This document shows, piece by piece, positions 25,641 to 64,000 of a DNA stretch of 64,000 nt. This stretch comes from Octopus sinensis (lineage: Eukaryota). The translations under genes were made by a program, and so were the position numbers. The notes beneath the pieces were generated by a model. The model was given only the letters and a program-made list of their open reading frames with translations. It was not told where the DNA came from and did not search any database. The DNA is taken from assembly GCF_006345805.1 (NCBI RefSeq), contig NC_042997.1:41044001-41108000 (forward strand), in the 5' to 3' direction. Positions within the stretch are counted from its first letter, which is position 1, and each line of letters begins with the position of its first letter.

Positions 25641-25679
25641 GTTCCTGGACACTTGCTCATTCTAATGTCGACCCTCCAG

Positions 25680-26120
25680 TTTGTGGCCAAAGCTTACTCT
25701 TGCCCTGCCAATATAGTGTTCTCGGTCTCTTTCTTTAGAATTCCTTTCATCAGCCAATCCCACCTATTTTTTGTTATATGGAAATTCATCGTGTTCTCCC
25801 TTCTTGCGCCATTCTTCTTAATTTCTTTTTATGTTTCTTCCTTCGTTTTTCCTGCTTTCAATACTCCCTCATTCCTAACTGTCACTAGTAAGGTTTCCTT
25901 ACTTTGGGTTCGGTATCTCATTAAGCCTTCGAGTTCGAAACGCACGCAGTTTCCCACGCTTATCAGTCCCTTTTCTCCATTCGCTCTCTTCGTGTATCGG
26001 CGATCAATGTCTGCACGTGGATGATGGGCTCCATACATCGTTAGGACCTGTCTTGACTTCCTGTCCATCTCCTTTAGCTTCTCTGTCCACTTTAGTTTTC
26101 CAGCTTTCAAACCAATATTT
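25680..26120 (-). mobile_element. R4/Dong-like non-LTR retrotransposon fragment
   Basis: LKWTEKLKEMDRKSRQVLTMYGAHHPRADIDRRYTKRANGEKGLISV, the same region as in 8924-9226. Confidence 0.8.
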
Positions 26121-26309
26121 TGTTCACTCGCCAAAAGTGCTCTCTTTTTCTCTTTTCCTTCATGTCGTGGTGTTTGATTCCATCTGTGTTTGTGTGAGTG
26201 TGAGTGAGAGAGAGAGTGTGTTTGGGGGGGGGGCATTGTAAACGATGAATGAAATGAACATGAAATGAAAAAATCGTGTAAATAAATGGACATAATAAAC
26301 GGAATAATA

Positions 26310-26523
26310 CAGGTTTCAAATATTGGTACGTGACCAGCAGATTCGGTGTAGGGGGTTACGTTGATTACATTGACCCAGAGCTCAACTTTCGCTTATTTTA
26401 TCGACACAGAAATGATGAAAAGCAAAGTCAATCTCGGCGGAATTTGAACTCAGAACGTAAAGACAGACGAAGTACTGCAAAGCATTTCTCCCGGTCTGCT
26501 AACGATTCTGCCAGCTTACCGCC
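26310..26523 (-). mobile_element. tRNA-derived SINE
   Basis: Reverse complement of the family at 48887-49088. Confidence 0.8.
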
Positions 26524-27178: not shown

Positions 27179-27321
27179 CATCATCAATGCCTTTGCTCTG
27201 TTCTGCATTGTAACATTGAGACATGTCTGGTTCTTGCCAGATACCAGTAAACGGTGAACACTTTTGTGATGACAGGTTTTGACTTGATGCCATTTCTGGA
27301 TGCCCCATCGTTCTGGAAGAA
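27179..27321 (-). CDS. Exon, second half of the HRM domain: (C)SSRTMGHPEMASSQNLSSQKCSPFTGIWQEPDMSQCYNAEQSKGIDD(G)
   Basis: tttttcag|T...G|gtgag, 143 nt, phase 2 to 1. G.W..PD.S.C is the HRM C-terminal signature. Confidence 0.88.
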
Positions 27322-28744: not shown

Positions 28745-28859
28745 CAATTCCTGGTGGCTACATATGCATGACATGGGATCTCTGCAGTAGTTCCTATTTT
28801 TGTCATTGGCCAAGAAAAAGCTCGATTGTTAGTTGATGTTGTGCTTTCATCACAAACCA
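28745..28859 (-). CDS. Exon, first half of the HRM domain: (M)VCDESTTSTNNRAFSWPMTKIGTTAEIPCHAYVATRN(C)
   Basis: ttctttttcag|TG...TG|gttcgt, 115 nt, phase 1 to 2. C...WP.T..G.....C....A.R.C is the HRM signature of secretin and adhesion GPCRs. Confidence 0.9.
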
Positions 28860-29462: not shown

Positions 29463-30160
29463 ATATTTACTTATATATTCTTAAAAAATAATAAATAAAA
29501 TAGAAATATAGGTGTGTGCATATGTATATATATATTTTATATTTTCTCAAGCAATATAACTGATTACGGGATATGACTACTCAGAATGCTAGTCTGTTTC
29601 GCGGCCTCTAGTGTTGGATTTCGTCAATATATTGATCACTCTTTAGACATACTGACCGGAAGCGCAAAACCTAATGTACGCTAGAAATAGGTAGATGTTA
29701 TATTGATTTGGCGATGGTAAAAGGAAATGAATAGAAACGACGTGAAAATATATCATTTTTCGGCAATGGGATATGATTTGTTCCTCTTTTATATCTCTTA
29801 GAGATGAGTTAAAGCGTATTAGCTGTGTGTGTATCTATCGATCCTAATTCAAAAATTAATATGATCACTTCGAACAAAATGAATTTTCACCGAGGAAAAT
29901 TATTTGCAACATTAAATAATTTTCCTGTTTGAATTAAAGAAAGTACTGGAATTGTGTGAATTATTCTGCCCAGTAGAGTCTGCATCTTCTACTTCTATAC
30001 AAAATAAGAAGAAAACATTTTTGCCCTTGGTTAATTGGTATAATTAAAAAGAAACTGAGAAAAGACAAACAGTTCCGTAGGGTCAAGAAACGGTAAAGCG
30101 CAAAATAAAATGCTGTCTTTTTAAAATTATCCAAGCTTTGAGAAAATGTAAATAAATAGT

Positions 30161-30209
<49 letters not shown>

Positions 30210-30337
30210 GAGAGAGTCTATGTGCTTGACATCATCTACTGTGGTTGATGATGACGACAACGGCGAAGAGTTTGGTGATTGATGAAGCTAATTATGACGG
30301 TAATGATGACAAAATTAATAAGAAACACGATACTTAC

Positions 30338-30492
30338 TTTCATCAATGAATTTCATGTGGCTTTGCGGAACTCCTAAGTTAAGCAATGCCTGGGATTTGT
30401 TCAAAAGTTTAGAGATATTGCGCCGCAGTTGACTTTCAGTCATTTCGCTAAATACTGTACAGTAAATAGCAAATATTTTATTTCTGTTTGAG
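30338..30492 (-). CDS. Exon, SEA-like part 3: (G)SNRNKIFAIYCTVFSEMTESQLRRNISKLLNKSQALLNLGVPQSHMKFIDE
   Basis: ttttatttcag|C...A|gtaagt, 155 nt, phase 2 to 1, open frame that matches both neighbours. The domain label is an inference. Confidence 0.85.
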
Positions 30493-30621
30493 CTGAAATA
30501 AAAATAAATACATACATGTATGTCGGTATGTATGCATGTATGTAGCTAGCTAGCTAGATAGATAGAAATAAACATACATTGATACGCACGTCCAGACCAA
30601 TCCTACGCACTAATACTCTCT

Positions 30622-30660
<39 letters not shown>

Positions 30661-30893
30661 ATACATACTAATACATACACCAACCCTATACATACACACA
30701 TCCAGACCCCTCCCACGCACTTTTAGCTGGTCCCTCAACCCTTTTATCAACCCTATTATCTCCCCTTATTTCGCTCTCGCGTCTCATGTTTGATCTTTGA
30801 CCTCTGGCCGAAATCAGATCGCCATGTTGATTCGTTAGCTACTGCACGCATTTTTTTTCTCTCCTTCTTTCTGTGTTTTTCTCTCTCTGTGTA

Positions 30894-30931
30894 TCTTTCT
30901 GTTGAAGAGCGTAGGCTCGAAACGTTAAAGA
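30894..30931 (+). ncRNA. Hammerhead-like motif with variant core (TTGAAGA); related degenerate reverse copies near 20015-20050, 35378-35410 and 38095-38135
   Basis: TCTTT..G-TTGAAGA-GC-GTAG-GC-TC-GAAACGTT-AAAGA. C3 of the core is replaced by T. Confidence 0.4.
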
Positions 30932-31028
30932 CTTGTTTTATTTATATTTCCTGAGCGCCATACTAATACAATTGTTCGTTTGTTTTCCACCTGCCTTCGT
31001 CTTTTGTTTATTTTCATAAAGCTTCCCG

Positions 31029-31068
<40 letters not shown>

Positions 31069-32021
31069 TCGTTTAAAAGCTGCCCTATTGATCCTTGGGC
31101 CCAACAATGACACCATGCATTGAGTACATATTAAATTTCATGAAACATGAATGTTTCTCAAGCAATGAACAATTTTCTTCAAAGCAATGATATAATTTGT
31201 CGGTCGAAACTTATTGCAAAGCTTCATGATAAACCAGAGTACCACCACCATCATCACCGTATCTGCCATACACACGCCATCCAGACTTCTGACGCCATCA
31301 CCATCAATACTTTTCATCACTTTCCCCTCCACCACTATCACCACTGTCTTTCACATCGCTTTCTATCACTATATTCAAATATAGCTTAGAATTGGATCAT
31401 CATAGCTACAATAACCGCATTCAGTATGGTTGAGAACAGAATTAGTGAAGGCGGCTAGAATTATAAGCGGGTGACTAAAAGTTGGTCTTAAGAACATATT
31501 CGTCCAGTACCGTGGCTTGCCCTCTTTAGAATGTAAGAAATCCACATGGTGGTCTTCCCACCATGTATAAATTTTTATATACATTTTATATATATATATA
31601 TATGTAATTTCCTGGTTGGTTTTAAATTGCGTGTTAGCCACCTTAAATATTTTATAATCTTCACATTGCCATTTTGTGAAATCAATCCCTAATTCTATGG
31701 CATTCTCAATGATACTGACAGGTGTGAGTTAGCCTCCAGCAGCCGTAATGGAGTGAGCATTGCTGATGAGTATTAACTTCCTATAAGAAATTAGCATGCT
31801 AATCTAATCCATCTGGCTTACCGTGGGGAATGTCGTCCCCCCTGCCAATGCAAAGAGACCATATATCTTTTTGTGGCTAAGGAGTTTATGACTGATATTT
31901 CTAACAATGTTGGTGCTCATTGCACTCTTTTCACACTTAGTGACTGTGAATTATTTCCCTGCTGGTTTCAAATTGCAGATAGCCACCTTAATTTATATAC
32001 ACACACCCATATATGTGTGTG

Positions 32022-32081
<60 letters not shown>

Positions 32082-32103
32082 CGTATGTATAGGTGTGCGT
32101 GTT

Positions 32104-32138
<35 letters not shown>

Positions 32139-32221
32139 ATATAGATGTATATATATATATATACATATATATATAACACACACACACATATATATATATA
32201 CACATATATATATATATTTAC

Positions 32222-32272
<51 letters not shown>

Positions 32273-32368
32273 CATATATATTATATACATATATATATAT
32301 ATGTTATATATATATATAATACTATAATACATATATATATATATATATATTATATATTATATATAATA

Positions 32369-32457
<89 letters not shown>

Positions 32458-32459
<2 letters not shown>

Positions 32460-33514
32460 ATACGAGGTCAGTTGTGGAAAATGTGCCATGACCCAGTTTC
32501 GGTGGTTTGGAGTCGGAGAGTCTGAGAAGGAAGTTATTGCGCTTTGTTCTGTCATTTTTAGGGAAACTTAATGAGTTAGGAAGTGACATTTTGGCCCTTA
32601 CGCTCAGGGAAAGTTTAAGGAAAAAAATAAAAATGCTACCCTTTATAATTGCGGCTGGCAATTGGTTTTGTTGGTCAGTTTTGCCTGAGACAGGTCATTT
32701 TGGCGTGAGAGTTGGCCTGGGACAGTTCAGTTGGCTAGAGGTGCAGTCGGGAGAGGCAACAACAAGGTTGACAAGCGTGGCGAGAAGGACAGACACAGAG
32801 GATGGAGGACTTGTCAATAGAGAGAAAGTGAGGGAGATTACGGCGAGAAGGTATGGCTATTTGTAGTGGGAGTTTTTGTGATGATTCAGGGAGTGTTGCA
32901 GACGAGAAAACATACGGTAATGTTTTGTTTATGTTTTCGTTGTTGAATTTTGGATGGTGATGTGCGTCGAAAGAAAAGAGAAAAGAACTTGTGAGTTGTG
33001 TTAAAAAACAGAAAGACTGACAAAAAGGAAAAAGAATTGTGTCAAAAAAAGGGACTGTGGAAAAGAAAGAAAAAGAAGGGAAAAGAACATTGTGACGTAA
33101 ACTGTAATCTGTTGTAAAAAAAGAATTGTTGAAAAAGAATAGGAAAGACTTTAATGTGGACGGTTTTCGAACTCTATTGTGTTGAACATTAATGTGGATA
33201 GTTTTCGAACGTCGTGTATTGTGCATGCATGGATTATTGTTGCTTTTTCTCTGTATTTTCTTTAACGTATCTGATATGTATTACGTTGCATTTGATGTTG
33301 TAACAATTGTATAAACTGTTGTTAAATGTAAGCAACTGCCTTCCGCCATGTCTTTCTCTTCCTGTTGTTGTTGTTGTTGTCTCCGGTCACAGGTCTGTGT
33401 TCGCTGCCATCCCAAACCGTTTGCTGTGGCGGATTCCGTTTGACTGAGCGTGATCGTCGTCGTCGCTCGACTTAGGGTCCCGAGTTCGAGGTGAGCGACG
33501 GCAGGTTCGTAACA
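32458..33514. mobile_element. Probable solo LTR (1057 bp) inserted in a (TA)n tract
   Basis: TG...CA termini with an imperfect inverted repeat (TGATACGA...TCGTAACA), ATAT on both sides, and absent from the duplicate copy near 18800-18880. Confidence 0.75.
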
Positions 33515-33527
33515 ATATATATGTATG

Positions 33528-33599
<72 letters not shown>

Positions 33600-33852
33600 T
33601 CAATGTGAGGATAAAATTCTTTTCGAAAAAAAAACATTTTCTCGAAAAAAATTTTATCAATGGCCAGCATATTAAAAAATACCTTTAACGGTTAAATTTA
33701 TAAACAATTCATAAATGAGGGCAAAGGAAACAAAATTCTAATGCCAAATATGCCGAAAAATTGGACATATTGTCCATTAACCATATAATTTTTTCACAAT
33801 ACGCACGCTACTCGAAAAAAGGCTGACAGAAATTTCTAAAAAATTCCATTAT

Positions 33853-33910
33853 TACCATATCGGACCGATTTCAGAGTTAGCTACTAAGAGCCCTCTCTTC
33901 GTCAGTAATA
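33853..33910 (-). ncRNA. Type I hammerhead ribozyme (minus-strand copy)
   Basis: TATTA-CTGACGA-AGAG...CTCT-GAAA-TCGG-T-CCGA-TA-TGGTA. Confidence 0.75.
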
Positions 33911-34243
33911 CATGTTTTTTTCCTTTGCCCTCATTTATGAATTGTTTATAAATTTAACCGTTAAAGGTACTTTTTAATATGCTGGCCATTGATGAAATTT
34001 TTTTCGAGAAAATATTTTTTTTTCGAAGAGAATTTTATCCTCACATTTGATATAAATTTAAGCGTTCACTCCCGAACTAACTAACTCACTCTGTGAGAGC
34101 CTCACTTCAAATCGCACGTGCCTCGAATGGGCTGGAGTATTTCTATTTTGGATGTATTTAGGGTACTTCGTTGTGCCCATGACTTAGTATTTGCTTCTTC
34201 CTTGGGTGCGAGTAAGTATCTCATTTATATCTTTTACCACATG

Positions 34244-34301
34244 TATCACTGACGAAGAGAGGGCTCTTAGTAGCTAACTCTGAAATCGGTCCGATATGGT
34301 A
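34244..34301 (+). ncRNA. Type I hammerhead ribozyme (plus-strand copy)
   Basis: TATCA-CTGACGA-AGAG...CTCT-GAAA-TCGG-T-CCGA-TA-TGGTA: complete core with stems I, II and III; predicted cleavage after AUA at 34296. Confidence 0.8.
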
Positions 34302-34452
34302 ATAATGGGATTTTTTAGAAATTTCTGTCAGCCTTTTTTCGAGTAGCGTGCGTATTGTGAAAAAATTATATGGTTAATGGACAATATGTCCAATTTTTCG
34401 GCATATTTGGCATTAGAATGTTTTTCCTTTGCCCTCATTTATGAATTATATA

Positions 34453-34526
<74 letters not shown>

Positions 34527-34738
34527 ATATATATACACATATGTATATATAGTTCTCTCAGTATCTTTATATGGGTGATAAAACACTTAAGCATTTCATC
34601 GAATGTATGAATTAGTATATTGTGGGTCACAAGTACAACACTGTTGATTATTGAGACGTATAATACATGCGATAAAATCGAATGTGTGGAACAAAGGCAA
34701 ATAAAATTTGAATAAATATGTTAGAAGCTTTTGCTTAC

Positions 34739-34791
34739 CCACAGTGTTCAACTCTGAAATTTCCCGTTACGGTTGAAAACTCATGCTCCAT
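34739..34791 (-). CDS. Exon, SEA-like part 2: MEHEFSTVTGNFRVEHC(G)
   Basis: tttgcag|ATG...GG|gtaag, 53 nt, phase 0 to 2; splice sites conserved in the duplicate at 19393-19445. Confidence 0.85.
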
Positions 34792-36551
34792 CTGCAAATG
34801 CCGGATGTGTATATATACATGCATACATTAAATTCAAAAAAGAAAGTTAGCTTTAGAAGCGTTGAGATGTATTGAAAGATTCAGATGAGGAAATAATTTA
34901 TTCTCAAACGCAGGATAATGCTAATAGTATAGCATGAACAGGATGAAATATCCATATTTTGCGGCTAGCTATAAGACTCAAACACACATCCCTGCGATTA
35001 CGCGTCAAGTGCTTTACCATTTAGCTAAGCTGCCCGAACGAAAACTTCTGCTGCAAATTTAGGATATATAAATCTAGCTTTATAAGTAGAGTTATCACAG
35101 GGATGTGAGTTCGAGTCTCATGACTGGTCGCCGACAGATTTTTCTGCAAAATATGGATAGTTTTTATCCTGTTCATGCTATATTATTAACATTATCCTCC
35201 GTTTGAGAATAAAGTTATTTTCTCATCTGTAATATATATTTTTATTTTTAATGTTCTACTCTTCAAATTTTACATATATAGTCAAAGAACATTAAAAATA
35301 AAAATAACAAAAAACAAGAGGACGTACGCATGGAATATATTAGCTGGACGCTCGGTAAAGTGGAGGAAAAGAAAGGGCTTTTAACGTTCCGAGCATGGCT
35401 CTTTGTCAGAAAGATAAACAGAAATGTTGAGAGAAGGAAAATATTACCAAATCTACGTGTGTGGTTACATATGTACATATGTGTGCTTGCGTCTCCACGC
35501 GCATGTTTGTGCGTGCGTGTATGTATGTGTGTGTGTGTTTGTGTGTGTGTGTTTGTGAGTGTGTTTGTGCGTGTGTGTGTGTGTATAAACACAAGATTAG
35601 TGAATAATTGAGTAGGATTTTATTTACTGTCAGAATCGGAAATTATATCACGGAATATATAAAAGATGTTCATTGTGTGAACTTCATTTAAAGACAAAAT
35701 AGTGGATCAAACAGTCTTTTTATTGACCAGCAAAAAATCAGTAAGTTAGAAAGAAGTTTATGTAATAATTTACTATCAGTAATTGGAGTTGATTGTCTGA
35801 ATTTCAGGAAACCCAAATACAATTATTTCGCAGTTTTTACTACGGTCTACTGCATGTTCATGTCTCAGTATATTTACGTGGCTGTATAAAAGTCTATATA
35901 TACTTACATGCATACAAATTATGATCATATGGATTGCATTAGATTGCCGATGTTCAGTCCACTGCAGAACGAAGGTCTCAGTATAATCTCTCTACCAACC
36001 CTGTCTGATGTGGAGGCCGTGTTTTGACATCGAGAGTATACTAGTTCGATGAACCTAACAACTCACACTAGCTCAACAAAGCTTGGCAGTGGAGTAAATA
36101 CTCATACAGAGGTGTAGTAAAAACGATTAAAGGATGAAGGGCAAAGTCGGCTGCAGTAGAATTTGAACTCAAAATAAAAAGATGTGCGAATTACCGCTTA
36201 TCATTTTGCTCGACGTACAAAAGACTTTTCCAGCTCGCCGCAGAATATGTATGGAATCAAATAATAAATAAATACGCATATAATATTTATCTATATATTT
36301 GATTGGAACATGTATTTACATATGTATGTATTTATGTGTTTAAGCTGATCAGGCTAAACTTTGAAATACCTGTTATCATTTAACAAAATCGATATCACCA
36401 TCTACTAAACGAATTGAGCTCCCTATTTAAATTGACGGTTTGCTTTTCTTCTATAAGATATGTATGTATGTGTATGCATGTGTGCGCGTGGTCAGTGTGT
36501 GTGTATGTGTGAGTGTGCGGAGAAAGAGAGAGAGAGCAGATATCTACTCAC

Positions 36552-36634
36552 GGTTCTTGATATGTTCTCAGCAGGGATTTTATATTCGTTGGACATTTTA
36601 AAAATCAAACGAAATACGAAGGATTTGATCCAGC
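36552..36634 (-). CDS. Exon, SEA-like part 1: (G)WIKSFVFRLIFKMSNEYKIPAENISRT
   Basis: ccatag|GC...ACC|gtgagt, 83 nt, phase 1 to 0; joins the Ly6 exon to the next exon in frame. Confidence 0.85.
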
Positions 36635-37217
36635 CTATGGATTGATATAGAAAATAATCGCTGCGTTTATAAATGAGACACACGTCATAGACGCACATAA
36701 AACCCACGTACGTAGATAAAAATACACATTCATAAATATACTATATAAAAAATATGTAGTGAGAATTCGCAAAATAACAAAAGACGAAGACAGGTGGTGT
36801 AGAAAACAAACAGATGTATTTGTATAACGTTCCATAGATAGATAGATATACGAATATACAGACTCACGTAAATGTATAGATACATGTATAATCACACATA
36901 TATATATGCATGCATGTACACATACAGAGTTCCATCCGTTTTTCTGTCCTCGATTCGTATATATTCGATCCTTTTTCCAAGAAATCTAATGCTCGTAGCT
37001 TAGTTTTCCGTGGGGCTGGCCGGATCGGAGTGATCTCAAGATTAAGCAGGCGAAATTGCGAGGATGATCCGGTTCTCGACTGAAGATTAGAGGCTTCGAA
37101 TGACCCGTCCGTTTTTTGTGTCGTCTATTTGAGTGTTTTGCGTTTTTGTCCCATTTTGTATTTTATATATATTTTTATACATATATTATTGCGGCGTAAC
37201 GTACATCTTGTCCTGTT

Positions 37218-37284: not shown

Positions 37285-37912
37285 CCTACATCTATATGTA
37301 TATATACATGCATATATGGATACAGGACACCAAAACAAACATCGAACACAATGAGAAACGAAAACATAAAAACAAAACCATGGAAACGGACAATTTTTTT
37401 AAACAACGAAAAACAGAGTACAAGACACACAACAGAAGGAAAATTCCCCTTCTTCAGACGCCTCTGCTTCGTCCACTCCGTGTTTCGAAGGTAAAGGCGA
37501 GACACAACTTCGTTTAAGCATTCCTTCCCGCAAAGCAAATAAAATAATTTTCAAAATAATTTTTCCTTTCGTTCAGGCTTAACAGCCCTTACTCTTTGTG
37601 TTACTGTTATTCTCCTTGTCCTTTTTTTTAGTGTTTTTATTTGTATTGTTTTTACTGTCCTGTTTTGCTACCATTGTTACCCCTCCGGGAAGGATTGTTT
37701 CCATGAAGTCGTGTCTCGCCTTTACCTTCGAAACACGGAGTAGACGAAGCAGAGGCGGCTGAAGAAGGGGAATTTTTCTTCTGTTGTATGTCTTGTACTC
37801 TGTTTTTTCGTTATCCGTTTCCATGGTTTTGTTATTATCTTTTCTTTTCTCATTGTGTTCGACGTGTTTTTTGTTGGTGTCCTGTACCTATATATCCATG
37901 TATGTATAGATA
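37285..37912. repeat. Inverted pair of diverged repeat copies (about 37285-37530 and 37684-37912)
   Basis: ORFs 37276(+) and 37722(-) give near-identical peptides (KQSTRHTTE.KFPFF.RLCFV.SVFRR). Confidence 0.88.
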
Positions 37913-40929: not shown

Positions 40930-41990
40930 CATTTGTGGTGGACGCATTCAAAAGGGGTTTATATTTTTCCATGAAATATGACACTTTTCTAATGCGCTGA
41001 CTACAGGTTACATCGTCCCTGAGTTTATAGAGAGGAAAATTCTGAAATTGGGTTGTTCGTTAGTGGCGCAAAAGTCAATGTGTTCGCAAAATGCTATTTT
41101 TCTGTATTCCCAAATTTTAATCTGGGATCTATGTAGGGTCTTCCTCTGGTGTAGACTAATTTCGATTTGGCCTATGTATTGTTCTCGACACCCTGAGCAA
41201 ATTAATGCCTATATTAGGTTTTCCGAAGCAAATATGAAGTTGTTTTTCACTGTAAATCGTTGAACCTGTTTGAAAGAGAGCTCCTATCCCTGAATTAGGT
41301 TAACGCATATACCACAGTTAGTTCTTCTGCATTTTTTTACTGACGGCTTCAGTGTGATGTCGAATGTACTTGAGCTTGTGTTAGGAGACATTTGATAGAT
41401 TTTGGTTGTCTTTTGCTCTTTATGATGGTGTGCGTTTGGAGGATAAAATTCATTCTGTGATCCCTTTTTAGTAGGTGAATGTTCTGGAGGATTGTGTCTA
41501 AAGCTTCATTGTTAAGGGGGTTGTGTGTGGAGATGTATGATAGGGCTTTGGCTGTAAATCCTTCTTTAATTTGGGATGTCTGAGTTCGTGGTGCTGAGTT
41601 GTAGGGCACATTGAAAGCCTATACCAATTAGTGATGGTGCGTAGTTCCTGGTAATGAGTGCATGCTTTAGTTCATGTAGCCGTGTGTCCCTGGTGTTTGT
41701 ATTAGGGACTATAGTACAAATCATTTTTGCTAGGTTGAATGGGATATTCATTCTAGTGTGTCTGGGGTGGCATGAGTTAAACAGTAGATATTGCTTCGAG
41801 TCCGTAGGCTTAGCGTATGCATATGTTTCTATTTTGATGTTGAATTTCGTAATGAGGATGTCGAGGAATTGAAGTTGTTGATGGCTATATTCCATCGGAA
41901 ATTGAATGTTTATATCAAGTCCATTTATAAGAGCTTAAAATCCTTTAGGTCTTTCTATACTATCATGACAAAGAATGATAGAAGTTGTCT
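40930..41990 (-). mobile_element. Penelope-like retroelement remnant (RT thumb plus GIY-YIG)
   Basis: LQFLDILI...YAKPTDSKQYLLFNSCHPRHTRMNIPFNLA and, near 41100-41260, LICSGCREQYIGQ...LHRSQI. Frameshifted. Confidence 0.88.
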
Positions 41991-42294: not shown

Positions 42295-42476
42295 CAATGA
42301 AATCATTCTTGTTACATAAGTGTCCGACGCAACAACTAGTACAAGCCGTGCTATTCGTCCGTTTATTGCATGTAAGGGTATTGTTTCTCATAGCTTCAAC
42401 ACATTTTCTGTATGTGCTGCAGGACCTTTCAGTCTTCAGTTTAGCACCGTTCATTGATTGCGAATCGGCATACAGG
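42295..42476 (-). CDS. Exon, Ly6/uPAR three-finger domain second part: PVCRFAI[frameshift]MNGAKLKTERSCSTYRKCVEAMRNNTLTCNKRTNSTACTSCCVGHLCNKNDFI(G)
   Basis: ttattacag|CCT...G|gtaagt; CCxxxxCN terminal signature. At 182 nt it does not fit phase 0 to 1, which implies an indel near 42455-42460. Confidence 0.82.
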
Positions 42477-43371
42477 CTGTAATAATAGATATGAAAATTA
42501 TACGCTACAACCAAAATATTTATTAGTACGATTACTGCTAATTACAGCAACAACAATACTGGGGATGTTTAACATGCAAGAAAGTTTAATCATTGCTATA
42601 AAATATCCAAAACAATAAATGAAACCGTAAAAGAGTTGCCGAATTGTTGAAAGTTAACAGCATAAGTAAACTTCCGTAAAATTTATTGCTATTTAGCATT
42701 CGAAAAAAATGATTTAAACGCTTTCAGTGTCCATGTAGATATGGACATCGGATCACGGTCTTTAGCAAAACCGCATCGCACTGTCACCCGTCACCAAACT
42801 TAAAATATATCAAATTATCCCAATAAAGATGTATCAATTCTCCAAAATTTCTTCTTACTGGAGGAATACGCAAGTGGATTTTTTCATATGAAATTTACGG
42901 AAAATCATGCTTACAAAACTCACCAACAACAGAAACTAATATGCCTTTACCCAAAGATGATAATGAAATAAAATTGCCAGATTGAACTCCTCAGTCCAAA
43001 CAAATTAAACAGAAAATACATAAAATGAACACAAGAGAAACTTCGTTTTATTTTGCAAGTATATTTTATATGAAAATACGGTATATTAGTATAAAATTTG
43101 GAGAGAAAACAACCAAGATCTTGTTAACTTAATAAGGGACATTCTGAAAACGAAAAATATCAGAAATGGAGAAGAATATTAAAAGAAAAGAATCCATCAC
43201 GAAACACAATTAATAATCGCAAACACCTAACAATAATAAAAGCAATGAAAATGTAGACATTGAAGTTAGAAATAAGATATTCATTGCCTTAGTTTGAAAT
43301 TGAAACTTGTTTCTTCCAACGTTGGAAAATTTTTAGAAAGAAAATTGGATCTCCCAAACTGAGTGAGGTTG

Positions 43372-44416: not shown

Positions 44417-44508
44417 CTCTGCTCCTGGACAGCTTGTCACATAGGAATCATTGCAGATCATTCCTGAACATGTTTGACACTGTAAATTCCGTTGAAATAA
44501 CGAGTAAT
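44417..44508 (-). CDS. Exon, Ly6/uPAR domain first part: (N)YSLFQRNLQCQTCSGMICNDSYVTSCPGAE
   Basis: tattctgtag|AT...GAG|gtaaac, 92 nt, phase 1 to 0; L.C..C....C......CP pattern of three-finger domains. Confidence 0.88.
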
Positions 44509-45011
44509 CTACAGAATACAAGTAAATATCTGTATTTATGAACCAAATAATGCAATGCATAGCAATAACAATAAATATTTTCCTTATGATGTAAAAAAAA
44601 ATGTATAAGTGTTAGTATTGAAATCAATACTTGTTAGACATATAAACCAAATTATTAACAAAGACTATAAACCTATTTTTATGTTCATTTGGAAACGTTT
44701 CAATAATGTCACAAATTCAACTGAGAGAAGCATGAAAGCCACTTGTTGTCCTTTTGTATTCTGATGTAACACACACGTGAAAATCGTTGAACAAGTCAAA
44801 TAAAGGGATGAAATTCGAAAGTTGCAAGCATTGTTGCAGTGGAAACTCCCTAATGAAACCCGAGAATCTCATTTAAGTTGTGTTACAATGTCATATAGAA
44901 TGTGAAGAAGGCCATAATATGTGAAATGAGCAAAACAATATTTGGATAAACAATAAAAAATATGATCACTAATATTGTGCTTTTTCCAATATACACACGT
45001 TTATGTATGTA

Positions 45012-49677: not shown

Positions 49678-49835
49678 TTTGACATTGCGAATAATCCAGT
49701 ATAGGTATTCGTTTCCCTGAGCCTTCCTGACACGTGCCAAAGACAGCCACAGTTCTGTTATAGACTTTTTTGATATAATTTACGAAGGCTGGCAAGTGGC
49801 ATCCACACCTCATAAGGTTATTGTTTAGGAGGTAA
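49678..49835 (-). CDS. Exon, LRR C-terminal cap: (I)YLLNNNLMRCGCHLPAFVNYIKKVYNRTVAVFGTCQEGSGKRIPILDYSQCQ
   Basis: ttattacag|T...A|gtaagt, 158 nt, phase 2 to 1; N...CxC.L......C......C four-cysteine LRRCT pattern. Confidence 0.9.
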
Positions 49836-50828
49836 CTGTAATAATAAAGAGAACTCTGAATGCGTTTCAGATCAACAGAGAAATTCCCATGTGATTTGAC
49901 AAGAAACAAAGATTATAAAATTTGAGCAGGTTTATAAACGTTATGACATTCATTTTTCTAAGTGTTGTTAATAACATCAATAATGTGAAATGCTTTCTAG
50001 TAGAAAGTGGAAGCACTAAGGTTCTATTCTCTTTTAGCTTAGATATTGAATAATAAAGTACATTTAAATAAGATTACTAGCCACTTGAAACGATTCTATT
50101 TTATTGTAGTTTAGGGACATTTTAGTGTCGGGAATTTGGTGGTAGGTATCTTGCTACGCTCTATCTGAGAAAATTCATTTAGACGAGCGGCTTTGGCGCT
50201 AAGAAGGTCGTGTTTATTCTATGTAGCAACTGGTTTTAAAACTAGAGACGTACCAGCGCAGAGACTGAGAGATTATAGTGTTGTACATTTTATAGCTTCA
50301 GCGGTACAGACATGTATAGTAATACTCCTAATTAAGAAGGGGAAAATTAATATTCATTTTTGATATATCAATTTGAATATTTTCAGTCAATAATAAATCT
50401 CTGAACGAGATGTAAACAGTAACCGCTCGACAACGTAAAGTATAATAGCCATCTCAATATGGCTAACCACTAAGGATGGGTGTTACTGTAGCTTTTAGCC
50501 TCAGGAGATTATCGTCAACGCACGATATTATGTGACAGAAGATAACTGTTTCATTTTCATTTCAATACATTGTAATATTTCTGTATGTCTTTTGGTCTGT
50601 GTCATTCGCTGTGTATTGACCAAAACCAAATAATCCATTGATGAGGAGGTCATCAGGTAATCGCTAAAGCCAAAAACCTCTCAGTTCAATTGTCTTATGC
50701 CGGAGTAGAAATTAGAGGGAAAATGAATAAAACAAGTTTTAACCTTCTCATTTGACCCTTCACATGCAAACATAGACATCTTCATACACATTCAAGCATG
50801 AATATGGTAGTAGAAAGTAAAGTTAGAG

Positions 50829-52595: not shown

Positions 52596-52667
52596 ATATT
52601 AACTATGCTGGGAAGGAATAAGAAAGCGCCATCTTCATATTTTTCTATTGGGTTGTTTTGCAAATAT
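52596..52667 (-). CDS. LRR exon 5 (last LRR): YLQNNPIEKYEDGAFLFLPSIVN(I)
   Basis: ctttttcag|A...AT|gtaag, 72 nt, phase 2-2, LxxNxIxx.xxxaF..L pattern. Confidence 0.88.
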
Positions 52668-54922: not shown

Positions 54923-56322
54923 AGTTATACTTTAGACTGTGGTTCTTCAAGGTGGTTCTTACGCTAGCTCCTACTGCATGTGCAATCATTCCTTTCTCCT
55001 AATTGTTGTTCTCAGGGTGTTGGGTGGGTAGGGTTCAGCCACATCAGCGCTCAGTGTTGCATTTATTTACAGCTGAAGTGATGGTGGGTAATCTAAGCAT
55101 CTGTGATCTGGTGGGGCAGAATATATAGTCTAAGAACGAGACCTGGATCACGCGTGTTGACCTCACAGAACTACACTTCACTTTTCACAGATAATCTCAT
55201 TACATTATACCCCAGAAAAATCGATGTCAATAGATGGGCAGAGGGAATCATGTCCTTAGTGTCCACTACACAACATGTGAAGAACTTGGAGTGGCCGCAA
55301 ATACTCATTTTATTGAGGATGTCCTCAGTGCTAACATAGACGAAAAAGAAGAAGAAAAGAAGAAGAAGAAGAAGAAGAGAAGAAGAAGAAGAAGAAGGGC
55401 GAAGAAGAAGATAAAGAAGAAGAACAAGAACAAGAAGAACAAGAATAAAAAGAAGAAGAACAACACGGGCATGATAAAGTAAAAAAGAAAAGTAAAAAAT
55501 GAAAAGGTGGAGAAACAATACGAAGAGGAAAACGAAGAAGAAGAAGAAGAAGAAGAGGAGGAAAAGAAGAAAGAGAAGGAGGAGTTAGGAAGAATATGAA
55601 GGAGAAGGGGAGGAGGGAAAAAAGCACAACAACAATAGGTAGGGGAGGAGGAGGAAGCCGAGGAGAAAAGAAGAAGAAGAAGGAGAAGGAGAAGGCAAAG
55701 ATGAAGAAGAATAAGGAGAAAAAGAGGGAGAAGTAAAAGAAAAAGAAGGTGGAGGAAGAGAAAGAGAAGAAGAAGCAGAAGCAAAAGGAGAACAAGAAAA
55801 AGAAAAGAAAGAAGAATGAAGAAGAAGAAGTAAAAATAAGAAGAAGAAGAAATAGAAGACGAAGATGAGGAATTCGAAGTTGAATGACAAAATCAAAACA
55901 CTAAGGAGAAGATTGAAATAAGAAATGAAGGAGGAGACAAATTATAAAATAATGGAATATTATAGTCACATTTCACACAGAATTACACTTATATATGAAC
56001 ATACATATATACTTCAGCTACAAATATTTGATGCAAACATGTAAACTCACAAACGTTACCATTTCTAATACAAATTCATATCAAAATCATTGAAATTTGG
56101 GGAACAAAAATGAGTTATTGAGATGCGAATTGAAACAAAGCAACTACAATAAAGGAACATTATATTTTTCCTATTATTTCACTTTCTCTCTCAAATTCTC
56201 TCTCTTTCTTTCACATTGTCTCGCTCTCTCATATTCTCTTTGCATCTTCCTAAATCGTGTTCATTCTACAAATTCGAATTATTACTTTCGGAAAATCGTA
56301 TCAAGAAACTGAACGAACTTAC

Positions 56323-56394
56323 AATCTCTCTAAATTCGAAAGCCCCATGAATACACCTTCTTTGATGGTTGAAATGTTGTTCCATCGCAGATCT
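56323..56394 (-). CDS. LRR exon 4 (type B): DLRWNNISTIKEGVFMGLSNLER(L)
   Basis: gctatag|A...TT|gtaagt, 72 nt, phase 2-2, typical 24-aa LRR. Confidence 0.93.
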
Positions 56395-58091
56395 CTATAG
56401 CAGTAAAGAAAGAGTAAATTAGATAATATGGAAAATATTTGTGATACAACATCAAACACTGTGACTTCAGAATGAAAGGAAGAAAAACAAGAAAGATAAC
56501 GAGGAAGAAAGAAGAAGAAGAAGAAGAAGGCGAGGATAAAGAAGAAGAAGAAGAAGAAGAAGAAGAAGGCGAGGATAAAGAAGAAGAAGAAGAAGAAGAA
56601 GAAGGAGAAATGGGGAGGAAGTGGAAGAGGTGGAGGAGGAGGAGAGGTGGGGAGGTTAGGAGGAGGACAAAGGAAGGGATGACTGAGGAGGGGCAGCTGG
56701 GGGTAGCAGCAGAAGGAGCAGTAAGAGCAGGAGAAAGAGAATAAGAGGAAGAATTGGCAGAGAATGGAAAAGAGGGAGACGAGTGCCGAAGCAGAAAGTA
56801 CAGAGAAGAAAAAGAAGAAAAAGAAGAAAAAAAAGAAGAAGAAGAAGAAGAAGATAACGAAGAGGAAGAAGAAGAAGAAGACGAAGAAAAGAAAGAAGAA
56901 GAAGAAGACGAAGAAGAAGAAGAAAAAGGAGAAGAAGTAGAAGAAGAAGAAGAAGAAGAAGGAGAAGAAGAAGAGGAAAAAAAGAAAAAGAAGAAGAAGG
57001 AGAGTGTGGAGGAGAGTGAGGAGGAGAGCTGGGGAGGTTAAGAGGAGGACAAAGGAAAGGATGACTGAGGAGGGGCAGCTGGTGAAGGCAGCAGAAGGAG
57101 CAGTAAGAGCAGGAGAATTAGCTTAAGAGGAAGAACTGGCAGAGAATGGAAAAGTGGGCGACTAGTGACGAAGCAGTAATTACAGAGAAGAAAAAGAAGA
57201 AGAAGAAGAAGAAGAATGAGAAGAGGAAGAAGACAAAGAAGATACAGAAAAATAAGAAGAAAAAAAGAAGGGGTAGAAAAGAAGTAAAAGAAAAAGCGGA
57301 AAATGTTAAGAAGACGAAGCGGAGAAGAAGAAGACCTAGAAGGTAAAGAAGTATCAGAATAAGAGAAGATAAAAAAGAAGAAGCACAAGAAGAGAAAGGG
57401 GAAATAGGAGAAGAACAAGAAGAAGAAGACAAAGAAGAAGGAGAAAAGGAGAAGGAGAAGAAGAAGGAGGAGGAGGAGGTGGAGGAGGAGGCGAAGAGGA
57501 AGAAGGTCGAGGAGTAGGCGAAGAAGAAAAAGAAGAAGAAAAAGAAGAAGAAAGAAGAAGTAGAGGAAGGAGAAGAAAAAGAAGAAGAAAGAAGAAGTAG
57601 AGGAACAAGAAGAAGAAGAAGAAAGAAGGAGAAGGAGAAGAAGGAGCAAGAGAAGAAGAAGAAGGAGAAGAAGAAAAAGAAGAAGAAGTAGAATAATAAT
57701 AATAAGAAGAAGAAGAAGAAGAACAAAAACTACAACAACAATAACAAAACATTTATTTCGGTGGAAGTGTGGATAAATAACCACACGGCACCACAGAATC
57801 AACAGAACAATGTGTAACAAAATAGTAGCTAAAACTTACATTAATAGTGCAGATACATACATACATATGAACATACACATATATATTTTCAGGAATAACA
57901 TTTTTATGAAGACAATTATCAACTTACAGTCATTGACATGTTCAGACTCAATCAAATAAATATAACACGAATATGAGAACTGAATATGATTTACTGTATT
58001 AGAGAGTGAGAAAACATGGAAATAAGGGGATATTAAATTTAAAGACATAGTATATTACTCATGTATAAACGACAACATTGAAAGAACTTAC

Positions 58092-58163
58092 AATTCTTGT
58101 AAGTTATGAAGGCCTTGAAACATCTCTTTTTGAATCCTCGAAATTTTATTGGTGGAAAGATAT
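58092..58163 (-). CDS. LRR exon 3 (type A): YLSTNKISRIQKEMFQGLHNLQE(L)
   Basis: gcttcag|A...TT|gtaagt, 72 nt, phase 2-2. Confidence 0.93.
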
Positions 58164-59963
58164 CTGAAGCAGGAAACAATATTGGTTAGATTGACATAGC
58201 GTGAATTGCGATAACATATTCAATATTGTTCTTTATGAAAAGGGACAATATTACAGGAAAATAATACAAGAAGACGATAGGAAAGAGATTGAGGAGAAGA
58301 CAAAGAAGGGGAAGATGGGAAGGGGAAAAAAGAAAACAATGACGAAAAGGATGGGGAGAATTGTAGAAGATGGAGGAGTTGGAGAAGGAGGAGGGGAGGA
58401 GAAGAAGAATGAGGACGGGGGAGGAAAATAAGATGCAGGAGGGGAGGAAAATAGGAGGAGGAGAAGGAGCAGAAGGTAGAGTAGAAGAAGTAGATGTAGA
58501 AGATCAAAAAGAGGAGTAGGGTAAGGAGACGACGAAAAAGTGGAAGAAAAAGAACAAGGAGGGGAAGAAGAGGAAAAAGAAAAAGAAAAAGAAGAAGAAG
58601 AAGAGGAAGAAGAAGAGCAGGCAAAAAAGAAGATGAAGAAATAGAGAGAGGTGGTGAAGGATGAAGAGAATAAAAAAAAGAAGATAAGAAGAAGAAGAAG
58701 GAGGAGGAGGAGGCGGAGGAGAAATAGAAAAAGAAGAAAAAGAAGAAGTAGACGAAAAAGATGAAGAAGAAACAGAAGGAGGATGACGAGGGGGAGGGGA
58801 AGTGGAAGAATTACAAGGAGAAGAAGAAGAAGAAGACGATGGAAGAGAAGAAGGAGAAGAAGAAGAAGAATTAGGAGGAGGAGAAGAAGAAGAAGAAGAA
58901 GTCGTAGTAGTAGTAGTAGTTGTAGTAGAAGAAGAAGAAGAAGAAGAAGAAGAAGAAGAAGAAGAAGAAGAATATGAAGCGGAAGAAGACGAAGAAAAAG
59001 AAGAAAAAAGAAGAAGTAGAAGGAAGAGGAGGCAAAAGGAGGAAGAGGAGGGTGAAGGGGAAGCAGAAGTAAGAGAAGAAGAAAAAGAAAAAGAAGGAGG
59101 ATCTGGAGGAGGAGGAGGAGGAGGAGAGAGAATAACAGAAAGAAGATAAGAAGTAGAAAGAGGAGGAGGAGAAGTAGATGAAGAATTAGAAGGTAGAAGA
59201 AAGAGAAATAGAAGAAGTAGAAGAAATTAAGTAGAAGAAAGAAAAGAAAAAGAAAAAGAAAAAGGAGAAAGACAAGGATGAGAAGTAGAAGGAGAAGAAT
59301 GAGCAGAAGAAGAAGAAGAAGAAGAAGAAGAAGAAGAAGGAGACGAAGAAGATGAAGAAGACGGAGGAGGAGGAGGAGAAAAAGAAAAAGAAGAACAAGA
59401 AGCAGAAGAAAACAAGAAGTAAAGGAAGAAGAAGAAAAAGAAGAAGAAAGAGATGAAGGAGTAAAAGAAGAAGGAAGAGGAGGAAAAAAGAAGGAGGAGG
59501 GGGATGAAGGTGAAGAAGAAGAAGGAGAAATAGAAAAAGAAGAAAAAAGAAGGACGCGGAGGAGGAGGCGAATAACAAAAAGATAAGAAGAAGGAAGAGG
59601 AAGAGGAGGAGGAGGAGGAGGAGGAAGAGAAGTAGATGTAGAAGTAGAAAGTAGAAGTAGAAGAAGAAAAGGAAGGAGGAAGACGAGGAGGAGTAGTAGA
59701 AGAAGGAGAAGAAGAAGAAGAAGAAGAAAAAGGAGAAGAAGGAGAAGTTGGAGAAGAAGATGAAGAAGAAAAAGGAGCAGGAGGGGGTAGGGAGTGGGAA
59801 GACGAAAATTACAAGAAGAAAGAGGAGGAGTCTGGGGAGGAAAATAAGAGGAGGAAGAGAATTACAAGAAGAAAATGAAGAAGAAAACAAAAAAATTGAA
59901 GAAGAAAAGAAGGAGGAGGAGAAGAAGAATAGGAGAAAAGAAGTAGAAGAAGGAGAAGAAGAA

Positions 59964-60021
<58 letters not shown>

Positions 60022-60542
60022 GAGAAGGAGAAGGAGAAGAAGAATATGAAGAAGAAGAAGATAAAGAAGAAGGAGAAGAAAAAGAAGAAGAAAAAAAATG
60101 AAGAAGGAGAAGGAGAAAAAGAAGAAAAAGAAGGAGGTCGAGTTGGTGGAGGCGAATAACAAAAAGAAGATAAGAAGAAGGAAGAGGAGGAGGAAGGGGA
60201 AGAGAAGTAGGTGAGAAAGTAGAATTTAGAAGAAGTAGAAGAAAAAAAGAAGGAGGAAGCCGAGGAGGAGTAGCAGAAGAAGAAGAAGAAGAAGGAAGAC
60301 GAGGAGGAGGAGTAGAAGAAGAAGAAGAAGGAGAAGGAGAGGAAGAAGAAGAAGAAGATGATGAAGATGAAAAAGGAGCAGAGGGGGTGGGGAGGGGGAA
60401 GAATTACAGAAGAAAGAATACATTCTGGGGGGAAATAAGAGGAAGAAGAAATTAACAAAAGAAGAAAATGAAAAGAAGAAAAAATTAGAGAAGGAGAAGT
60501 GAAGGAGAAGTAGAAGAAAAAAGAAGAAGAAGATAAGAATAA

Positions 60543-60573
<31 letters not shown>

Positions 60574-61438
60574 AGAAGAAGAAGAAGAAGAAGAAGAAGA
60601 AGAAGAAGACATTGAAAATCATGTTGTTCAAGACGAAACTGAAAATGTTCTCAAAATATCAGGAAATAATTCAAGGATAGAGCGATAAATTTTGGTTGAG
60701 ACATGGCTGAAAAATCAGGGAATATACGGAATCAGTAATCAACATATTCAAATGCACTTATACGCATTCTTATATTCATAATATCAGCGACGGAATGTGC
60801 TATGCACACTCACATCACACATATTCCCACTCACCCTTGTGGAAATATGGTGAGAGAGATTATTTATTTCATATCGATTCATTGTCACAAGAATATTAGA
60901 AAACACACGCTTACAAGAAATATTTCAGCAGTTTAATTGTATCAGGCCAAATATTCCAGTTTACAAGTACAGTAAGTATTTCAGGTATACAGATAGAATG
61001 TATGTGACTATATTATTCGAATATATATTTTCCGCTTCCACTCCAGTTGCTCTATTACAGAAATAACGTGAAATGAATGACAAAATTCGAAGTTGAATGA
61101 GAATATTGAAATAAGAAATGGAGGAGGATGCAAAATATAAAATAAAGGAATAATATCGTCACATTTCACACAGAACTACACTTATATATGAACATACACA
61201 TATACTTCAGCTACAAATATTTTTCTTATTATTTCACTTTCTCTCTCAAATTCTCTCTCTTTCTTTCACATTGTCCCGCTCTCTCCTATTCTCTTTGTAT
61301 CTTCCTAAATCGTGTTCATTCTACAAATTTGAATTGATTTTGTTCGGTGCAATCTGAAATTTTATACATTTGTGAGCTTATATATCAGCATCAATTATTA
61401 CTTTCGGAAAATAGTATCAAGAAACTGAACGAACTTAC

Positions 61439-61510
61439 AATCTCTTTAAATTCGAAAGCCCCTTGAATGTACCTTCATTGATGGTTGAAATGTTGTTCAA
61501 ATTCAGATAT
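61439..61510 (-). CDS. LRR exon 2 (type B): YLNLNNISTINEGTFKGLSNLKR(L)
   Basis: gctatag|A...TT|gtaagt, 72 nt, phase 2-2; visible at the end of ORF 61435-61866. Confidence 0.93.
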
Positions 61511-62205
61511 CTATAGCAGCAAAGAAAGAGTGAAATAGATTTTACGGAAAATATATGCAGAAGGAGCAGGAAGAGCAGGAGAATAAGAGGAAGAATTGGC
61601 AGAGAATGGAAAAGAGGGAGACCAGTGACGAAGCAGAAAGTACAGAGAAGAAAAAGTAAGAAGAAGGAGAACAAGAAGAGGAAGAAAAGTCGGAGGAAGA
61701 GGCGAAGTAGAAGAAGAAGTTTGAGGAAGAGGCGAAGAAGAAGAAGAAGTAAAGAAGAAGAAGAAGAAGAAGAAGAAGTAGAAGAAGGAGGAGGAGAAGG
61801 AGAGGAAGAAGTAGAAGAAGAAGAAGAACAACAACAACAACAAAAACTATAACAATAACAAAACATTTATTTCGGTGGAAGTGTGGATATATAACCACAC
61901 GGCACCACAGAATCAACAGAACAATGTGAAAGAAAATAGTAGCTAAAACTTATATTAATAGTGCAGACACATACATACATATGAACATACACATATATAT
62001 TTTCAGGAATAATATTTTTATGCAGACAATTATCAACTGACAGTCATTGACATGTTCAGACTCAATCAAATAAATATAACACGAATATGAGAACTGAATA
62101 TGATTTCCTATATTAGAGAGTGCGAAAACATGGAAATAAGGGGATATTAAATTTAAAGACATCGTATATTACTCATGTATAAACGACAACATTGAATGAA
62201 CTTAC

Positions 62206-62277
62206 AAATACTGTAAGCTTAGAAGGCCTTTAAACATCTCTTTTTCAGTCCTTGAAATATTATTGTCGGAAAGATCT
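62206..62277 (-). CDS. LRR exon 1 in window (type A): DLSDNNISRTEKEMFKGLLSLQY(L)
   Basis: gcttcag|A...TT|gtaagt, 72 nt, phase 2-2. Upstream exons are presumably beyond position 64000. Confidence 0.93.
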
Positions 62278-64000
62278 CTGAAGCAGGAAACAATATTGGT
62301 TAGATTGACATAGTGTGAATTGCGATAATATATTCAATATTGTTCTTTATGAAAAGCGACTAATTATAGGAAAATAATACAAGAGGAACATGAAAGAGGT
62401 TGTGGAGAAGAAGAAGACAAAGACGAAGGGGAGGAGGGAGAAGGGGAAAAGAAGAAGACAAGGAGGTAGGGGAGGGGAGAAGAAGTAGAAGAAGGAGTTG
62501 GAGGAGAAGGAGGAGGGGAGGTGAAGAAGGATGAGGACGGGGGAGGACAAGGAGATACAGGAGGGGGAGGAAAATAGGAGGAGGAGGAGCAGAGGGTAGA
62601 ATAAGAGAAGATGTAGAAGATTAAAAAGAGGAGAAAGAAAAGAAGAAGTAGAAGAAGGAGGAGTAGGGTTAGGAGAAGTCGAAAAAGAGGGGGAGGAAGA
62701 GAAGGAGGAAGAGAATAACAAAACAAAGAAGATAAGAAGAAGAAAAAGGAGGAGGAGGAGGAGAAGTAGGAGAAAAAAAGAAAAGAAGAAGAAGAAGAAG
62801 AAGAAGAAGAAGAAGGAGTAGGAGGAGGAAGAGGAGGAGGAGGAGCTGTGGAGAAGAAGAAGAAAAGAAGAAGAAGGAGGAAGAGGTGAGGAGGAGGAGG
62901 AGGAGCGGAGGAGAAGAAGAAGAAGTAGAAGAAGGAGGAAGAGGAGGAGGCGGAGGAGCGGAGGAGAAGAAGAAGTAGAAGAAGAAGGAGGAAGAGGAAG
63001 TGGAGAGAAGAAGAAGTAGAAGAAGACGAAAAAGAAGAAGAAGAAGAAGAAAAGAAGAATAAAGAAGAAGAAGAAGAAGAAGAAGAAAAAGAAGAAGAAG
63101 AAGAAGAAAAAGAAAAGAAGAAGAAGGTGATGATGATGATGAACCTGAAGAAGAAGAGCAACAAGAAGAAGTAGAAGAAGGATGATCAAATATGTCATTC
63201 TGAATAAGTCTCTGAATATTAGTGGATCACGTTTTCACTCTATGTACATCCCATTTACTGATCCGAGCAGTGGAATGAACACATCTGGAGTTTTTGATAA
63301 GTCTCAGATCGAATAATGGATGAAAGATGGCAACTTTGCAAATTCAAGGAATTACATTGAAGCAACAGGACGGAATTCCTTTTTAATAATTGCAAATGCC
63401 TTTTTAGGCAACACGAATACTTCGAACAGTGCTGAAATAATCGATAACCTGCTGGAGAGCTTTTAGAAGTTGGGCACAAATATCAGTATATAGCCGCACT
63501 ATTTCCACAACTACAACAAACAAGGAATAAAAATTCAACTTTGCCTTACACCTAGAGTAGAGGTTTCCATTTACAGATCTATGAATTCTGATAGCCATAA
63601 AAATGTCATATTTTCTTTCGATTAGGAGAAAAGCACTTTTCAATACTCTTCACAGGACGGTCGATTCTAATGGGAAGAAGAGAGGATCAGAATGCTTAAA
63701 ACAAAAGGGATTTCACTAAAGGAATTCAAACTGCCAAATGGTGGTGTCGAACCGAAATGTGGTTTAAGCCTACCAATCTAATAGATCATTAGAGTAGAGA
63801 CAGAGAAAGGGTACAGCATACCTGTGGAGCACAACCAAAGGTACCCTCAAGGTTACTTAAAGGTAGCCTTGGTTTACTTGTCGTTCAAAATGCTGGGCTT
63901 CATTAGCACCGAGTATCTCTCTTGGCGATAGCAGATCCTTAGCACAGTTAGGACAGTATCCTAAAAAATAACCCCTCTCATTGGAGCCAGAAGATAACTC

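Follow-up and report, generated by a model that had tools for sequence, protein, structure and literature searches.

What makes the short duplicated exons of a gene differ from one another several-fold more than the intron beside them? The question is raised by a 64,000-nt stretch of the Octopus sinensis genome (assembly GCF_006345805.1, NC_042997.1, here G000:C1, positions 41044001 to 41108000; below, the window, whose numbering all coordinates follow unless they carry a prefix). Its minus strand bears four 72-nt exons, each encoding one leucine-rich repeat (LRR), which we name A1, B1, A2, and B2 (B1 and B2 are the "type A" of a first-pass annotation of this DNA, and A1 and A2 its "type B"). 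We conclude, with a probability of roughly 0.55, that they are cassettes of a germline-diversified family of LRR binding proteins built on an old molluscan adhesion G protein-coupled receptor (GPCR), with non-self molecules as the most likely ligands. The mechanism of cassette diversification is well supported, recognition of non-self is the role that the sequences make most likely, and the family would be a candidate diversified recognition system of octopuses, possibly an immune one. The features that bear on the question are as follows.

56323-56394, minus strand: LRR cassette exon A1 (72 nt, phase 2-2, ag/gtaag splice sites)
58092-58163, minus strand: LRR cassette exon B1 (72 nt, phase 2-2, ag/gtaag splice sites)
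61439-61510, minus strand: LRR cassette exon A2 (72 nt, phase 2-2, ag/gtaag splice sites)
62206-62277, minus strand: LRR cassette exon B2 (72 nt, phase 2-2, ag/gtaag splice sites)
57735-58091, minus strand: conserved intron flank of a B unit, by alignment
61850-62205, minus strand: conserved intron flank of a B unit, by alignment (B downstream-flank pi, 0.038)
58250-60610, no strand: GAA/GGA-rich purine tract between cassettes (further tracts at ~55330-55870, 56470-57730, 61560-61850, and 62400-63190)

B1 and B2 differ at 14 of 72 nt (nine amino-acid and two synonymous codons) and A1 and A2 at 10 of 72 nt (seven amino-acid codons, 0 synonymous), exactly as first counted; the intron following the B exons has 13 differences in ~350 nt by alignment count, also as reported (Fisher p = 1.8e-5). 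Of the framework residues, which the first-pass annotation called invariant, N9 is not strictly so across the family, where 2 intact exons carry S.

Exact-pattern matches in the assembly number 102 for type A and 40 for type B, with 0 for reversed controls, and these counts include redundant contigs, which inflate genome totals. Exons were sampled from 13 fetched regions, which hold some of the copies: A and B types, 93 in all, alternate in no fixed order, and the exons of any one array share a strand, with 3 to 14 A/B exons in each of the 12 arrays tallied (some cut by the fetch). From the 93 we dropped 12 (8 broken, 2 cut by N or the fetch end, and the 2 intact exons with N9→S) and then 9 more on two redundant contigs, which leaves 72, with 42 A and 25 B exons unique. 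A GAA/GGA-rich tract lies in all 81 of 81 inter-cassette introns, and 50-nt windows rich in these triplets number 1055 of 3140 within arrays versus 3 of 3569 outside. Such purine tracts are recombination-prone, and by analogy with the GA repeats at the edges of sea-urchin SpTransformer duplications, they may promote mispairing; they could also simply be inherited with the unit.

For 21.3 of 47 type A exons, the nearest neighbour comes from the same locus (expected, 5.1), and four-gamete violations are frequent among cassettes, so local duplication and exchange both appear to act. Codon usage in type A cassettes shows linkage (p = 1e-8) that sorts them into two styles; 24 of 25 type B exons agree with one of the two, a hint of either A-B exchange or shared ancestry. 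Three arrays, on C12785, C10451, and C9761, are near-identical (98.6 to 98.8%), and their last LRR exon, of 70 nt, is skipped in 14 of 14 examined database models. In another array (G000:C11856:21383-33556), cassettes that start with HLWK, NLWD, and DLSD follow one another as they do in P0002, a model from O. vulgaris; the two species thus retain an orthologous array.

The evidence that carries our reading comes from the four codons x3, x5, x7, and x8, whose assignment to the repeat's concave side follows the LRR consensus and PMC3341825 (the cited papers were available in part, and statements about them concern those parts). The 72 exons carry 52 distinct x5x7x8 triplets. In type A, the first 12 coding nt differ by 43% within loci and 48% between them, the rest of the exon by 10 to 13%, and the flanks by 5 to 7%. 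Under our own codon likelihood model, with two trees per type (n = 42 for A and 25 for B), omega (dN/dS) at x5/x7/x8 is 4.8 to 5.6 in A and 6.2 to 7.5 in B when dS is shared across the exon (p ≤ 1.3e-8) and 2.9 in A and 6.6 to 8.1 in B when these codons have their own dS (p ≤ 0.004); framework omega is 0.37 to 0.62, and x3 is also high in type A (6 to 8). Allowing multi-nucleotide changes leaves x5/x7/x8 at 5.6 and 8.1 (likelihood ratio test [LRT], 42 and 18). The observed LRTs of 75 and 44 compare with a maximum of 11.7, and an omega of at most 3.8, in 40 neutral simulations of type-A-like data with free recombination between segments. Likelihood was preferred to pairwise NG86 estimates, which give pN≈pS at type A concave sites (0.445 versus 0.422), because path-averaging of multi-hit codons probably inflates pS. 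The same entropy peaks recur when 46 A units are taken from models of O. vulgaris, among which turnover is fast: 1 of 53 units is identical to a sampled exon, and 9 of 45 triplets are shared.

The first-pass annotation had proposed diversifying selection, to be sought as dN/dS above 1 at concave-face codons in a larger exon sample, and this is what the sample shows. Of its two suggested causes, selection or exon-limited conversion, selection accounts for the concave face, and conversion joins it as an added contributor. Exon dS is 1.5 to 2.7 times the flank rate, which speaks against selection acting alone and indicates that the flanks are also homogenised or constrained; moreover, in one of three near-identical array copies, a single exon carries 9 nt changes (2 synonymous) and the following ~350 nt carry 0, which reads as a conversion patch. 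On these two grounds we take conversion to contribute as well. A neutral exon beside a converted intron, the refuting case that the annotation itself had named, fails as a sole cause, since framework and synonymous sites lack the excess: it is limited to the amino-acid-changing bases of four codons, while the adjacent L6, N9, and I11 are constrained. A targeted mutator of deaminase or retroelement type was also considered and set aside, given that the substitution spectrum is flat and that x5 keeps its third base, T in 39 of 42 A and 24 of 25 B exons, as bases 1 and 2 vary.

What protein, then, do these cassettes belong to? The related protein P0020 has Pfam matches to GPS (E = 1e-10) and 7tm_2 (E = 7e-34), which identifies the family as adhesion GPCRs, and contig C9912 carries a full LRR-LRRCT-Cys-SEA-HRM-GAIN-GPS-7TM-tail gene (7TM, seven-transmembrane). 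All 24 of 24 protein matches to the LRRCT exon are Octopus proteins, and database models labelled O. sinensis are identical letter for letter to exons of the assembly; more distant relatives with the same layout occur in Argonauta, Nucella, and Ylistrum, and from these and the GPS/7tm_2 members we conclude that the scaffold is an old molluscan adhesion GPCR. The clusters of P0070 (E = 1e-70) and P0079 (E = 3e-39) hold the O. bimaculoides proteins A0A0L8FLR8 and A0A0L8HDZ7, both listed with LRRs in group 3 of the octopus adhesion-GPCR expansion (PMC6408891), and by sequence similarity our family belongs to that group. Ritschard et al. (2019) reported tandem duplication and branch-level positive selection in this expansion; as far as the available text of that paper goes, it describes no one-LRR cassette arrays, hypervariable concave face, or 7TM-less copies. 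The "undescribed system" of the first-pass annotation is thus a known family, and what stands of that claim is the cassette arrays and the selected sites.

Copies lacking the receptor part are common. Between the HRM and tail exons of the window copy, seven family proteins used as queries find no GAIN, GPS, or 7TM match, and none of the 47 GPS matches in the assembly lies on C1. Of 39 LRRCT matches across the assembly, 17 span the full length with at least 91% identity, versus 3 of 47 GPS matches at at least 92% to P0020; the tail exon has 28 matches of at least 93% among the 40 scored of 60 candidates. By coordinates, LRRCT leads to the tail without an intervening GPS in seven copies (on C1, C5, C25, and C9761, and three on C29). 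The same tail end is shared by models from O. vulgaris, the predicted receptor-less products have no hydrophobic anchor there, and such copies look secreted.

Known systems provide several comparisons. VLRs have 24-residue LRR cassettes, a variable concave face, and membrane and secreted forms, but they arise by somatic assembly, starting from a germline gene that is incomplete, whereas the octopus cassettes are spliceable exons inside complete germline genes, on which ground membership was rejected. Vertebrate ADGRA2/3 (GPR124/125) combine LRR, HRM, GAIN, and 7TM with an Ig domain in few conserved copies; the octopus proteins, like their Nucella, Ylistrum, and Argonauta relatives, have Cys-rich and SEA-like parts in the Ig place, Pfam scans of 13 proteins contain no Ig family, and membership in ADGRA was rejected for want of an Ig domain between LRR and HRM. 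Toll-like receptors were rejected because the Pfam scans show no TIR (the name under which P0058 is filed in the database is no more than a label), and LGR/GRL101 and Slit were rejected on domain content. The closest likeness is to the brown-algal LRR-ROCO proteins, which have 72-nt phase-2 single-LRR exons, shuffling, variable repeat number, and reported alternative splicing (PMC3341825, PMC11378527), and whose selected sites 15/17/19/20 equal x3/x5/x7/x8 in our own mapping on the printed consensus (PMC3341825). The octopus arrays share this working mode, with one LRR per 72-nt phase-2 exon, variable arrays, and concave-face selection. ROCOs, however, are intracellular GTPases with inverted intronic exons, whereas the octopus proteins are extracellular parts of an adhesion GPCR with all array exons on one strand and no ROC-COR GTPase domain in Pfam scans; the octopus cassettes are not LRR-ROCO members, and the origin is independent. 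Sea-urchin SpTransformer is an immune family with duplication units edged by GA-rich repeats, but its unit is a whole gene and not an exon, and it has no LRR (PMC8634487). In Anopheles APL1, another LRR protein and one that serves in immunity, gene conversion is held responsible for a high diversity of amino acids (PMC9222773), but it is not GPCR-derived.

Because the 72-nt exons are symmetric, the reading frame is preserved whichever subset of cassettes is kept. Two loci have, in database models, 7 and 13 isoforms respectively that differ by multiples of 24 amino acids; some fuse half-exons, which suggests read mis-mapping. In the read data, introns are covered in all four runs, and one run (X3) has a contig joining the end of an A exon to the start of the next in exact 72-nt register, a weak hint of splicing. 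There is no RNA record among the listed holders of cassette sequences. Published expression values concern four older LRR members, among which A0A0L8FLR8, the closest O. bimaculoides group-3 member looked up, scores 0.71 in skin and 0.17 in sucker.

From these data we would reconstruct the process as follows. Each LRR corresponds to one symmetrical 72-nt exon within a unit of conserved flanks and a GAA/GGA tract, and unequal crossing-over between near-identical units would alter the number and order of cassettes, which do vary among arrays. Gene conversion would homogenise flanks and patch exons, as in the one patch seen; diversifying selection, as measured above, retains new residues at x5/x7/x8, plus x3 in type A; and alternative inclusion of cassettes, as in the database models, may add diversity. 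Full-length members would signal through GAIN/7TM, and most young copies, that of the window included, have by their layout lost GAIN-7TM and would be secreted binders or decoys. As ligands, the likeliest would be surface molecules of microbes or parasites that vary and are encountered at skin, sucker, and gill. Other subfamilies may have begun to diversify on their own: concave residues recur with a regular period of four repeats in P0062, an older member, and are irregular in P0058 (O. bimaculoides).

Several points weigh against this reading. Besides the inflated cassette totals, the 8 broken cassettes among 93, and the type-A-like scope of the neutral simulations, the tree-based tests presume one tree although four-gamete violations are frequent, and 3 exons farther downstream in the window copy appear frameshifted. 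Apart from A0A0L8FLR8, the group-3 LRR genes looked up, three in number, have broad expression, one peaking in the axial nerve cord (0.25). In the parts of PMC6408891 available, no selected sites were found, LRRs are present in just 5 of 22 sequences, and a peripheral-nervous-system adhesion role is preferred.

The frameshifts call for a look at the window copy itself, whose gene layout is signal peptide–LRRNT–LRRn–LRRCT–Cys-rich–SEA-like–HRM–SEA-like–tail, with these further exons.

G000:C1:41110946-41111149, minus strand: signal peptide and LRRNT exon, 3 kb outside the window
52596-52667, minus strand: last LRR exon (type C, 72 nt)
49678-49835, minus strand: LRRCT exon (P0001)
44418-44509, minus strand: Cys-rich domain exon 1 (weak match to activin receptor type-1, E = 2)
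42296-42477, minus strand: Cys-rich domain exon 2 (2-nt deletion versus 4 of 4 compared paralogues)
36553-36634, minus strand: SEA-like module 1, exon a (in P0089, the corresponding part matches Pfam SEA at E = 0.013, below cut-off)
34739-34791, minus strand: SEA-like module 1, exon b
30341-30492, minus strand: SEA-like module 1, exon c
28749-28859, minus strand: HRM (hormone-receptor) domain exon a (Pfam HRM E = 7e-4, below cut-off, in P0018)
27179-27321, minus strand: HRM domain exon b
21221-21300, minus strand: SEA-like module 2, exon a (1 nt deleted in the present assembly)
19393-19445, minus strand: SEA-like module 2, exon b
17806-17931, minus strand: SEA-like module 2, exon c (approximate boundaries; apparently broken)
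16334-16386, minus strand: terminal tail exon with stop codon (follows 7TM in full-length members)

Cys-rich exon 1 is presumably LU/three-finger-like, from a CCxxxxCN motif; an Atlas search gave no usable match for the Cys-rich or SEA-like parts. The second SEA-like module originated in a duplication (17010-21371 versus 29535-36704, 87 to 97%). Upstream of the LRRCT exon, the open frame extends in phase (49836-49885); this stretch, included in several O. vulgaris models, may be an alternative acceptor or a prediction artefact. The first exon is 68% identical to P0059 and 34 to 39% to young-type leaders; it thus belongs to another subfamily, and the window gene looks chimeric.

The rival that survives best, and that is independent of the others, concerns this copy alone: it may well be a pseudogene that retains an old selection signature in a family otherwise as described, which we hold to be a serious possibility though not the favoured one. 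The 2-nt deletion, absent from 4 of 4 paralogues, and two further apparent breaks fit this, as do the foreign first exon and the dispersed position of the copy on C1; against it, the five LRR exons and the LRRCT exon all have open frames and canonical splice sites, and 1-nt deletions of the kind typical of error are numerous on other contigs. Since the assembly shows many such small indels, the frameshifts may be either error or decay.

The remainder of the window holds a 3.1-kb tandem duplicate (874-3981 and 3953-7061, 99.55% identity), possibly an assembly duplicate, each copy of which bears a plus-strand tail exon (1457, 4536) of a second family member. The last 7TM exon of that member lies at G000:C1:41031404, and the two genes therefore converge. 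Introns and flanks contain retrotransposon-like open reading frame remnants (7447-8499, 8376-9343, 23786-25656, 25829-26392, and 41566-41934), which we take to be LINE- and Penelope-like. The window also has a 126-bp repeat present three times head-to-tail in an open frame (11539-11916) and MITE-like inverted repeats of 91 to 97% (33602-34457 and 37405-37812).

Other rivals keep the mechanism and change the ligand. Contact chemosensing, arm or skin self-recognition, or mate recognition, with environmental or conspecific cues in place of microbes, is a possible but distinctly less favoured role: A0A0L8FLR8 is skin- and sucker-biased, diversifying selection also suits allorecognition, and a GPCR scaffold suits sensory signalling, but a young clade with 17 LRRCT copies at at least 91% versus 3 GPS copies at at least 92% fits secreted binders better than sensors. 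Rather doubtful, in turn, is the boldest extension of our own reading, an antibody-like octopus LRR repertoire in which more than 100 germline cassettes, reshuffled by way of the tracts and spliced alternatively, would equip every animal with many signalling 7TM and secreted binders that differ in their concave faces, at body surfaces, with somatic patching possible, as a third route to variable LRR recognition and one built on an adhesion GPCR. Combinatorial LRR inclusion could instead provide a neuronal identity or wiring code of the protocadherin or Dscam kind, as the axial-nerve-cord expression of group-3 genes (PMC6408891) and the database isoforms differing by whole cassettes might suggest; we judge this unlikely, since the low sharing of units and triplets with O. 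vulgaris means fast turnover between close species, and wiring by such a code depends on partners that co-evolve and usually on anchoring in the membrane, for which most young copies have no part.

That single cells assemble or convert cassettes somatically, in the manner of VLRs, is very improbable: a large pool with near-identical flanks, the one exon-limited patch, and the recombination-prone tracts would suit it, but each array is part of a complete gene, LRRNT on one side and LRRCT on the other, its splice sites are intact and its cassettes share one orientation, and some cassette order is kept across species (C11856 versus P0002). Equally improbable, and largely refuted, is an account with no selection at all, in which intron concerted evolution and an exon mutational hotspot or assembly error would explain the raised exon dS, the many small assembly indels in these repeats, and the common multi-nucleotide differences, but not an excess confined to four codons beside constrained ones, a substitution spectrum without A or C bias, or a pattern that recurs in a second species and survives the multi-nucleotide and simulation controls.

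How much of this is new? A full-text literature search, with subscription papers mostly outside its reach, returned no account of cassette arrays, concave-face selection, or receptor-less copies, and within the literature searched, the family is already known and the cassette arrays and site-level selection are new. In the accessible part of a 2026 review of immune diversification, FREPs represent the molluscs and no cephalopod diversified receptor is named (PMC13428168); a 2026 review of adhesion GPCRs does not use the words octopus, cephalopod, or mollusc in its first 300,000 characters.

The germline-diversified binding-protein family proposed here offers a candidate that is concrete and open to test: its cassettes are defined, the positions under selection are known, and membrane and soluble forms are predicted. 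An arms-race binding surface on an adhesion GPCR would be unusual, and the match with brown-algal ROCO proteins in exon size, phase, and selected sites points to a convergent use of symmetric LRR exons as a generator of diversity.

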